A DNA stretch of 64,000 nt, from positions 1 to 64,000 of IMG/VR virus record IMGVR_UViG_3300009551_000002, one strand, 5' to 3'. This stretch comes from a virus. Its lineage: Duplodnaviria > Heunggongvirae > Uroviricota > Caudoviricetes. How positions within the stretch are numbered: position 1 is the stretch's first letter; the number at the start of each line of letters is the position of its first letter. Positions 25,013 through 25,444 of this stretch are shown in pieces. The notes below the pieces were generated by a model, which was not told the origin of the DNA, ran no database searches, and saw only the letters and a program-made list of their open reading frames with translations. A program made the translations under genes and the position numbers.

Positions 25013-25444
25013 CTACATTGTGGTGCTCCCGGCAGGGCTCGAACCTGCGACTGATTGAGTTAGAGTCAATCGCTCTGCCAACTGAGCTACAGGAGCGTTC
25101 GGTTTCCACAGCTTATATTGCGCCAGCGCTCTGCGTCGCGCGCCTACGATGGGCTCTGTGGTGATTGCTGTGAAGCCTAGATTCATCTCTTCGTCGGGCT
25201 CCGTCCACGACCAGTGCGCGATCCCACAATCGCTCAGCAGAGAGCATGTAGCGCGCAGGGCAGCCTCGTCGGGTACGCCGCACATGACGATGTTGGGGAC
25301 GTCGTCGTCGCCGTAGCGCGCTGCCATAGACCACGTGGCGTGGTTGGTCTGCACTAACTGATGCTCAAGGGGGATGTCCTGACGGACGAAGATATAAACG
25401 TACTGGCTGGAGGTCGGTGCCGGGCGGGCCGGGGTGGAGGTCAT
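25013..25444 (-). CDS. peptidyl-tRNA hydrolase, PTH2 family
   Basis: IFVRQDI...QTNHA...VPDEAAL...C-terminal YKLW parallels PTH2 VRNDL...QCSHA...APDEETL...LKLY; the ORF runs on without a stop through the Sup tRNA gene on the same strand. Confidence 0.5.
   Translation of the reverse strand: MTSTPARPAPTSSQYVYIFVRQDIPLEHQLVQTNHATWSMAARYGDDDVPNIVMCGVPDEAALRATCSLLSDCGIAHWSWTEPDEEMNLGFTAITTEPIVGARRRALAQYKLWKPNAPVAQLAERLTLTQSVAGSSPAGSTTM
25021..25096 (-). tRNA. amber suppressor tRNA, anticodon CUA (tRNA-Sup)
   Basis: Perfect cloverleaf; anticodon stem ATTGA/TCAAT, loop CTCTAAC gives anticodon CUA; CCA encoded; body resembles the E. coli-type tRNA-Lys scaffold. Confidence 0.7.

Follow-up and report, generated by a model that had tools for sequence, protein, structure and literature searches.

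A tRNA gene with a CUA anticodon and a lysine-type body in a soil phage that uses the standard genetic code

Does a phage that carries its own tRNA for the amber codon also read that codon as sense? The question is raised by a 64,000 nt stretch of DNA from a tailed phage (Caudoviricetes; positions 1 to 64,000 of the IMG/VR record IMGVR_UViG_3300009551_000002, hereafter the window), which carries on its minus strand, at 25021-25096, a tRNA gene with the anticodon CUA. Suppressor tRNAs are best known from gut phages in which TAG or TGA has been recoded. This phage, in contrast, uses the standard code with UAG as an ordinary stop, late genes included, and for that reason the tRNA is regarded here as an orphan suppressor and not as the decoder of recoded genes. 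On balance we consider it probable that the gene encodes an orphan amber suppressor that is weak and inserts lysine.

25021-25096, minus strand: tRNA gene with anticodon CUA, identified by ARAGORN and Rfam, with a cloverleaf as its minimum free energy (MFE) fold and Escherichia coli tRNA-Lys as its best match

A sequence-only reading of the window had described a tRNA with a perfect cloverleaf and the anticodon CUA at this position, and three methods agree with it. ARAGORN reports the anticodon cta on the minus strand; the Rfam family RF00005 matches 25024-25096 with 68.4 bits (E=8.7e-13), end to end along model positions 1-71, which is the top score among the 27 Rfam tRNA matches in the window; and the MFE fold of the RNA (GCUCCUGUAGCUCAGUUGGCAGAGCGAUUGACUCUAACUCAAUCAGUCGCAGGUUCGAGCCCUGCCGGGAGCACCA) is a clean cloverleaf with a 7-bp acceptor stem and the 7-nt loop CUCUAAC. 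The anticodon loop consists of C32, U33, C34, U35, A36, A37 and C38. The RNA contains U8, A14, G18G19, U33, G53-U54-U55-C56 and A58, with a U8-A9 linker, an 8-nt D-loop containing GG, a canonical T-loop, a 5-nt variable region, the discriminator A73 and an encoded CCA. This is a canonical bacterial-type elongator tRNA with a type I cloverleaf, and from its anticodon it is predicted to read UAG and thus to act as an amber suppressor.

ARAGORN prints 'Pyl' for every CUA anticodon. Together with the anticodon, the resulting label 'tRNA-Pyl' would favour a pyrrolysine tRNA, an identity that is refuted by the structure and whose probability we regard as negligible. A tRNA-Pyl has a single nucleotide between the acceptor and D stems, a small D-loop without G18G19, a 3-nt variable loop and an atypical T-loop, with pylS and pylBCD nearby, whereas the present tRNA has a two-nucleotide 8-9 linker, G18G19 in an 8-nt D-loop, a 5-nt variable region and a normal T-loop. 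Moreover, the precomputed Pfam matches on the called genes of the fetched contigs include no release factor, no synthetase (that for pyrrolysine included) and no pyl biosynthesis gene; in the unannotated stretch at 27.7-52.2 kb of the window, the only ORFs (open reading frames) of suitable size encode a UvrD helicase and a 507-aa protein of no known family.

The window lies within the ENA contig ERZ27252311 k141_4886077, and the phage genome is probably about 119.4 kb in size (an ENA contig of 119,375 bp and a Joint Genome Institute contig with the same proteins of 119,411 bp). By exact-protein look-ups, through cluster members of homolog-search matches and by a scan of IMG/VR, we assembled 115,768 nt, about 97% of the genome, as a composite of near-identical contigs from several samples with a GC content of 0.54. 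Near-identical copies (at least 99.9%) are present in at least 10 soil and rhizosphere data sets, and the two contigs among them that cover the CUA tRNA agree in its sequence. A megablast search of the phage collection returned no close relatives. The nearest characterised phages are the phiCbK-like Caulobacter phages, with about 51% identity in one conserved protein and essentially no synteny with phiCbK, and the phage represents a novel lineage.

Over the assembled 115.8 kb, scored with a fixed codon model, the standard bacterial code (code 11) gives a coding fraction of 0.852 and a summed score of 5760. Treating TAG as sense (code 15), which had been proposed as a check for recoding, lowers these values to 0.834 and 5401; the corresponding values are 0.800 and 4872 with TGA as sense and 0.802 and 4943 with TAA as sense. 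Within the window, ORF coverage is 0.876 in the standard code versus 0.878 with TAG as sense. The 170 genes of the assembly end in TGA (76), TAA (67) or TAG (27; 16%), and TAG is the stop of five of the 27 genes with a length of at least 300 aa. The statement of the sequence-only reading that several other genes in the window end in TAG also holds (14 of 121 crude gene calls). Each of the following late proteins is encoded, in the standard code, by a single uninterrupted ORF.

Portal protein, 505 aa
Prohead protease/scaffold protein, 659 aa
Unannotated protein adjoining the protease, 630 aa
Head-tail adaptor, 309 aa
Protein at the tail-tube position, 260 aa
Protein of tape-measure size, 1597 aa
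Distal tail proteins of the DUF2460 and BR0599 types, 204 and 519 aa (one ORF each)
Phage-tail_3 protein, 1652 aa
Two further large proteins of the tail region, 660 and 662 aa (one ORF each)
GH25 endolysin, 207 aa

Several of these intact late genes have TAG as their own stop, and the proposal that the stop codon is reassigned in late genes outside the window is contradicted by them. Two relatives, whose tail-tube proteins are 83-87% identical to that of the phage, present the same picture, with TAG ending seven of 18 and three of 17 structural genes. For the 115.8 kb assembled, a TAG-recoded phage was thus rejected on the lower density with TAG as sense, the intact structural and lysis genes and the 27 TAG stops among 170. 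As a side observation, TAG is the stop of nine of the 28 genes in the structural block left of the window versus 20 of 137 elsewhere (Fisher p=0.05), and the right-hand plus-strand block is TAG-rich too (7/25); the higher share in the structural block could reflect strand composition or a link to late expression.

If UAG is a stop throughout, the tRNA might still serve readthrough at particular genes. The candidate put forward by the sequence-only reading lies near the left end of the window.

4130-4471, plus strand: 113-aa protein with a CxxC...CxxC (Zn-ribbon) pattern (motifs CPFC...CANC), ending in TAG; no Pfam match
4481-5329, plus strand: ERCC4-type nuclease of 282 aa with its own ATG; Pfam ERCC4 at 24.5 bits and a weak HHH_2 match

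The two ORFs are indeed in frame, separated by a 9-nt gap with no further stop, so that the junction itself stands; its interpretation as a sign of readthrough and of a fusion protein does not. The junction carries no weight because the rate of in-frame continuation is the same after each stop: among close same-strand gene pairs in a 110.7-kb assembly, open in-frame junctions follow TAG in five of 17 cases, TAA in 10 of 25 and TGA in six of 12 (Fisher p=0.38), that is, about one third of such pairs are in frame regardless of the stop. It carries no weight also because the downstream protein has its own ATG, with the ERCC4 domain (a marginal match, 24.5 bits against a cut-off of 24) beginning at residue 5, and because the true homologs of the 113-aa protein are stand-alone; a set of 1.84 billion representative proteins contains only two of these, with lengths of 109 and 124 aa. 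The fused sequence of Zn-ribbon and nuclease had no match in the phage collection. We judge the 113-aa protein to be the product of an independent gene.

A second short-gap in-frame TAG junction lies outside the window and leads from an 812-aa ORF to the head-tail adaptor, which has its own ATG and a complete domain; this junction is not conserved in the relatives. The 812-codon open frame (3166-5607 of the left-flank contig, about 30-32 kb left of the window) is located between the gene of a Laminin_G_3 protein and that of the adaptor, is in frame with both, ends in TAG and has no family match. A head-region gene that seemed to be broken by stops proved to be this one frame, in a place where the ENA gene caller had four minus-strand ORFs. 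Farther along the same contig (8715-9391), a 112-aa gene that follows the tail-tube-position gene ends in TAG in the phage and in both relatives, and in the phage it is succeeded, before the tape-measure-sized gene, by a 95-aa ORF in the -1 frame; tail assembly chaperones produced through -1 frameshifting, not through readthrough, usually have this layout.

Across the genome, the sequence 3' of TAG stops is no more coding-like than that after TAA or TGA (p=0.15). An apparent excess of a second stop within five codons past TAG (p=0.018) was rejected, since it disappears when only non-TAG backup stops are counted (p=0.16 to 1.0). Regulated readthrough, which had also been suggested, is therefore not borne out: junction rates are alike, backup stops are not enriched and the sequence past TAG is not coding-like. 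More generally, decoding of UAG in particular phage genes (the Zn-ribbon and ERCC4 pair, the 812-aa ORF and adaptor, or late genes) can draw on the existence of the two junctions and on the fact that recoded phages do carry CUA tRNAs. Against it stand the equal junction frequencies for TAA and TGA, two downstream genes with start codons and complete domains of their own, an adaptor junction without conservation, stand-alone Zn-ribbon homologs, the loss of density and score under code 15, intact late and lysis genes, and a GC content of 54% with TAG not depleted. This explanation is already largely refuted, and we leave it only a very slight probability.

The sequence-only reading had also seen a Lys-like scaffold in the tRNA, and this is confirmed for the body although not for the acceptor stem, which is unrelated to that of E. 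coli tRNA-Lys. The best E. coli matches are tRNA-Lys genes, with 82.8% identity over positions 8-65 (5,426 complete genomes; a median of six places per genome). Direct comparison with E. coli tRNA-Lys (the sequence used agrees with that in the Methods of PMC11464382) gives 58 identical positions of 77. Among 50,697 phage records, the best full-length matches are mostly annotated as tRNA-Lys, with a few as Asn, Thr, Met or Arg. The main tRNA array of the phage contains lysine tRNAs of both kinds.

28052-28126: tRNA-Lys(UUU), in the main array
28133-28208: tRNA-Lys(CUU), in the main array

Since tRNA-Lys(CUU) is only 61% identical to the CUA tRNA and tRNA-Lys(UUU) scores still lower, the CUA tRNA is no recent duplicate of the phage's own lysine decoders. 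Exact or near-exact copies of its body, with any anticodon, were found neither in IMG/VR nor in the genomes of 185,579 species, and these copy searches gave neither a donor tRNA nor a host. A looser pattern of a Lys-type anticodon arm plus CUA matches three loci in 2.9 million IMG/VR contigs, two of them with real tRNAs, and a single locus in the 185,579 species' genomes, on a contig of a Saccharibacteria metagenome-assembled genome. By these counts Lys-type anticodon arms with CUA are rare, and the loci found are unrelated to the phage.

The identity elements point towards lysine. The E. coli LysRS set comprises U34, U35, U36 and A73 (PMC1483225); of these the CUA tRNA has U35 and A73, with C34, which is tolerated, in place of U34 and A36 in place of U36, as read by the rules of E. 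coli. A transcript with C34 is lysylated about 30-fold better than one with unmodified U34, and amber suppressors are lysylated more readily when they have A31-U39 and other A-U pairs in the anticodon stem; the CUA tRNA keeps A31-U39 and an A-U-rich anticodon stem. The E. coli GlnRS set is U1-A72, G2-C71, G3-C70, G10, Y34, U35, G36, A37, U38 and G73 (PMC1483225), and only four of the 10 elements are present (G10, C34, U35 and A37), the remaining positions being G1-C72, C2-G71, U3-A70, A36, C38 and A73. A Gln-type suppressor identity, as in code 15 phages or supE, was rejected on this count, and Ser, Leu and Tyr identities are excluded because the variable region is short. Lysine is thus the best guess for the residue that would be inserted, to the extent that the E. 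coli rules apply in the phage's host. With respect to efficiency, C38 instead of A38 beside A36-A37 is an unfavourable anticodon-loop context. Its presence here suggests a weak rather than an efficient suppressor.

The surroundings of the gene bear on whether it is maintained for a function. Elements of the neighbourhood, all on the minus strand, are as follows.

25460-25488, minus strand: sigma-70-like promoter match (TTGACA-17-TACACT, 10/12), just upstream of the 143-aa ORF
25013-25444, minus strand: 143-aa ORF, traced by tblastn and translation
24954-25020, minus strand: 67-nt structured spacer between the two Lys-type tRNAs
24880-24953, minus strand: second Lys-scaffold tRNA-like gene (ARAGORN, Rfam 49.2 bits, fold)
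25953-29501, minus strand: main tRNA array of 30 tRNAs covering all 20 amino acids (ARAGORN, Rfam)
26019-26600, minus strand: HNH endonuclease ORF of 193 aa (weak Pfam HNH match) inside the main array

Among tRNA-rich jumbo phages, XacN1 and RsoM2USA included, residues 12-117 of the 143-aa ORF are conserved (tblastn), and the conserved part stops at residue 117, exactly where the tRNA gene starts. The last 27 sense codons span the whole CUA tRNA gene and a TAG-TAG pair follows 5 nt past the CCA, so that excision of the tRNA from the transcript would leave the message of the ORF without a stop codon. The ORF has no Pfam, NCBIfam or PDB match, and its single-sequence AlphaFold model is poor (predicted local distance difference test score, pLDDT, 50.6); the corresponding region of Salmonella phage Arash is located within a tRNA cluster and is in part annotated as peptidyl-tRNA hydrolase, an unverified annotation. 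The promoter match could drive the ORF, the suppressor tRNA and the second tRNA-like gene, on the strength of a weak signal (two sites in the scan versus 0.9 expected in shuffles).

The spacer is predicted to form a stable branched hairpin (MFE -29.3 kcal/mol, z=-3.64, with none of 200 shuffles as stable) and fits no Rfam family; no ribozyme family was matched at E<=1 in 24600-26100. A suppressor associated with a theta or hepatitis delta virus-like ribozyme was rejected, there being no ribozyme 3' of the tRNA and the CCA being encoded; Rfam 'Plastid-ycf2' matches are artefacts, below threshold and antisense to the tRNAs. The second Lys-scaffold gene comes close to tRNA-Lys(UUU) of Aeromonas phage phiWae14 in its acceptor stem, variable region and T-arm. 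Its acceptor, D and T stems are perfect and CCA is encoded; the anticodon stem has 4 bp and a 6-nt loop (GAAUAA), and G18G19 is missing. It is probably, judging from these features, a degenerate tRNA-Lys or a non-decoding tRNA-like RNA. The two adjacent Lys-scaffold genes, both with non-Lys anticodon loops, stand apart from the main array.

This arrangement lends itself to a neutral explanation, in which a Lys-type tRNA was acquired and its anticodon drifted to CUA, one step from CUU, leaving a by-product, possibly in decay, with no selected function. Horizontal acquisition and the fast turnover of phage tRNA arrays would account for its presence, and it would be tolerated because no stop is rarer than UAG and a weak suppressor loses out to release factor 1. 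The degenerate neighbour, which makes the end of the array resemble a graveyard of Lys-type genes, the lack of target genes among the candidates considered, the unfavourable C38 and the failure to find a divergent relative with a CUA tRNA near a shared marker gene all fit such an origin. With respect to the last point, 40 loci of relatives found through the DUF8224 protein (36-73% identity) have no tRNA block nearby. A decaying gene, however, should look worse than one with the best score of its kind in the window, all conserved tertiary nucleotides, a perfect cloverleaf and CCA, and the independent recurrence of CUA tRNAs in several tRNA-rich standard-code phages argues for some benefit. We regard the neutral explanation as unlikely, though with an appreciable chance of being correct.

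The lysine-type body also invites a role in counter-defence, one of the possibilities named by the sequence-only reading. PrrC and PARIS/AriB cleave tRNA-Lys, with AriB recognising the anticodon stem-loop and making its cut between nucleotides 40 and 41, and T5 escapes by means of a variant tRNA-Lys (PMC11464382, PMC10264068). The CUA tRNA might therefore titrate or probe an anti-phage nuclease, or be a leftover of such an arms race, without decoding. In line with this, tRNA-Lys is the target of both systems, the suppressor and E. coli tRNA-Lys agree in the 3' strand of the anticodon stem (UCAAU), the stems of the phage's tRNA-Lys(UUU) and tRNA-Lys(CUU) being different, and two adjacent Lys-scaffold genes have altered loops. 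The case is nevertheless wholly circumstantial: one phage gene would hardly out-titrate the abundant host tRNA-Lys, and none of the neighbours of the CUA tRNA was found to be a nuclease, ligase or repair gene. We assign this decoy role a slight probability.

A bolder proposal is that 24880-25488 as a whole forms a dedicated phage module acting on translation termination or on host immunity directed at tRNA-Lys. Its parts may be the promoter, an ORF possibly related to peptidyl-tRNA hydrolase, the CUA tRNA, the structured spacer and the Lys-bodied tRNA with the 6-nt loop. Such a module could cause readthrough of UAG in host or phage messages at set times, or could offer host-like Lys anticodon stems to a defence nuclease. 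We consider it speculative and of low probability; if true, it would explain what the orphan suppressors that recur in standard-code phages are for.

For the reading that we prefer, an orphan suppressor, we infer the steps of expression, charging and suppression as follows. The tRNA would be transcribed together with the upstream 143-aa ORF from the promoter at about 25460-25488 and cut out by host tRNA-processing enzymes. A host synthetase, most probably LysRS, would then charge it, in view of U35, A73, the tolerated C34, A31-U39 and the few GlnRS determinants. The charged tRNA would compete with release factor 1 and so cause low-level, untargeted readthrough of UAG in host and phage messages.

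Several points weigh against the orphan suppressor. The assembly leaves about 3.6 kb of the genome uncovered, in which the terminase gene probably lies, and the genes were called by a simple codon-score script, in agreement with the databases' own calls where these are present. Only two contigs cover the tRNA, and since identity among all recovered copies is 99.9% or more, there is no evolutionary sign of selection on the CUA anticodon. If the suppressor is active, 27-29 proteins of the phage itself would be lengthened, in some cases by over 100 residues, a cost without visible compensation. Finally, the charging rules are borrowed from E. coli in place of those of the host, and suppression itself is a prediction from sequence.

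Other features of the genome were noted alongside. ARAGORN finds 33 tRNA genes in the window. One tRNA-like gene (19428-19505, plus strand; Rfam 56.8 bits) lies on the opposite strand, away from the array; its anticodon loop is enlarged to 8 nt (CCAUUACA), or 10 nt in the Rfam alignment, ARAGORN reads a four-base anticodon 'atta', and the body is weakly similar to tRNA-Asn of Gordonia phages. It could be a frameshift-type or otherwise non-canonical tRNA. Within the main array, the HNH ORF is wedged between tRNA-Leu(CAA) and tRNA-Tyr, slightly overlapping both, and looks like a homing endonuclease that splits the array. The family A DNA polymerase is seemingly split into a 510-aa part containing a UDG-superfamily domain (7306-8838, plus strand) and a 471-aa polymerase part (12206-13621, plus strand), with NADAR, GIY-YIG endonuclease, Band_7 and small genes between them. 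A 593-aa fusion of glycosyltransferase and sulfotransferase near a gene for adenosine 5'-phosphosulfate (APS) kinase at 23029-23583 (region 20259-23583, plus strand) suggests a phage-encoded sulfation module dependent on 3'-phosphoadenosine 5'-phosphosulfate (PAPS), which is unusual in a phage. In the right flank (15040-20855 of the right-flank contig, about 67260-73075 in window numbering), the genes for ThyX, a DUF87-type ATPase, the GH25 endolysin and a peptide deformylase form a group. Counting the 33 tRNAs and the possible peptidyl-tRNA hydrolase as well, the phage has several translation-related functions.

Among known systems, the code 15 phages (crAss-like and Lak) resemble this phage in encoding a CUA tRNA that relies on a host synthetase. 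Their suppressors read UAG as Gln and some have a theta ribozyme 3' (see also PMC10879173). The present phage differs in having neither a ribozyme nor recoding, and its tRNA fits the Lys set better than the Gln set; in contrast to the published route to recoding, it has a GC content of 54% and no depletion of TAG. Laboratory amber suppressors derived from E. coli tRNA-Lys, and others that are mis-lysylated, share with it the Lys body, the CUA anticodon, U35, A73 and A31-U39 (PMC1483225), whereas this tRNA is natural and phage-borne, with an unrelated acceptor stem, C38 instead of A38 and a charging specificity predicted from sequence. The tRNA-Lys variants by which T5 evades PARIS, or which evade PrrC, are likewise phage-borne Lys-type tRNAs altered in the anticodon stem-loop (PMC11464382, PMC10264068); they keep the Lys anticodon and restore Lys decoding, whereas the CUA tRNA cannot read AAA or AAG.

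The closest parallels are orphan CUA tRNAs of standard-code phages, which were known before and to which this phage adds one more. The Stenotrophomonas siphophage Summit (58.5% GC) has an orphan CUA tRNA and 12 amber-ended genes, none of them fusable (PMC9022506), and its relative DLP_5 has a tRNA annotated as tRNA-Sup-CTA. The Xanthomonas jumbo phage XacN1 has two CUA tRNAs, and readthrough of its 18 amber stops reveals nothing (PMC5852040); the Ralstonia jumbo phage RsoM2USA has a CUA tRNA, the standard code and no target genes (PMC8504454). As in all of these, the CUA tRNA described here lies in or beside a tRNA cluster, the code is standard, the GC content is mid to high, TAG is a real stop and in silico readthrough finds no targets. 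Their hosts are soil- or plant-associated proteobacteria and the present phage comes from soil and rhizosphere samples; it belongs to a different lineage. Both the Lys-like D-arm region and the CUCUAA loop core recur in the tRNA of DLP_5, but since the two tRNAs are only about 63% identical (49/78) they are probably independent in origin. In Arash (OQ632216.1), ARAGORN reads CUA at about 49173-49247, where GenBank has tRNA-Phe, 1 kb from the homolog of the 143-aa ORF; Arash would be another phage of standard annotation with a likely amber suppressor on a different scaffold. Kinship of the two tRNAs was rejected (other scaffold, 43/76 identical), and the proximity to the ORF homolog probably means merely that both lie in tRNA clusters.

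A phage suppressor tRNA is usually taken as a flag for an alternative code. With 97% of the genome checked, late genes included, this phage is a counter-example, and a CUA tRNA alone should not trigger re-annotation in code 15. It joins a small set of soil- and plant-associated standard-code phages with an apparently functional amber suppressor, at least two of these tRNAs being built on Lys-type bodies. If their recurrence reflects selection, candidate roles are low-level readthrough, mutational buffering, a first step to recoding or an interaction with defence directed at tRNA-Lys. What sets the present tRNA apart from those of the other orphan-suppressor phages, and is new here, is that its gene shares sequence with the 3' end of a conserved ORF and that a second Lys-scaffold tRNA, probably degenerate and with its anticodon loop broken, comes after it.

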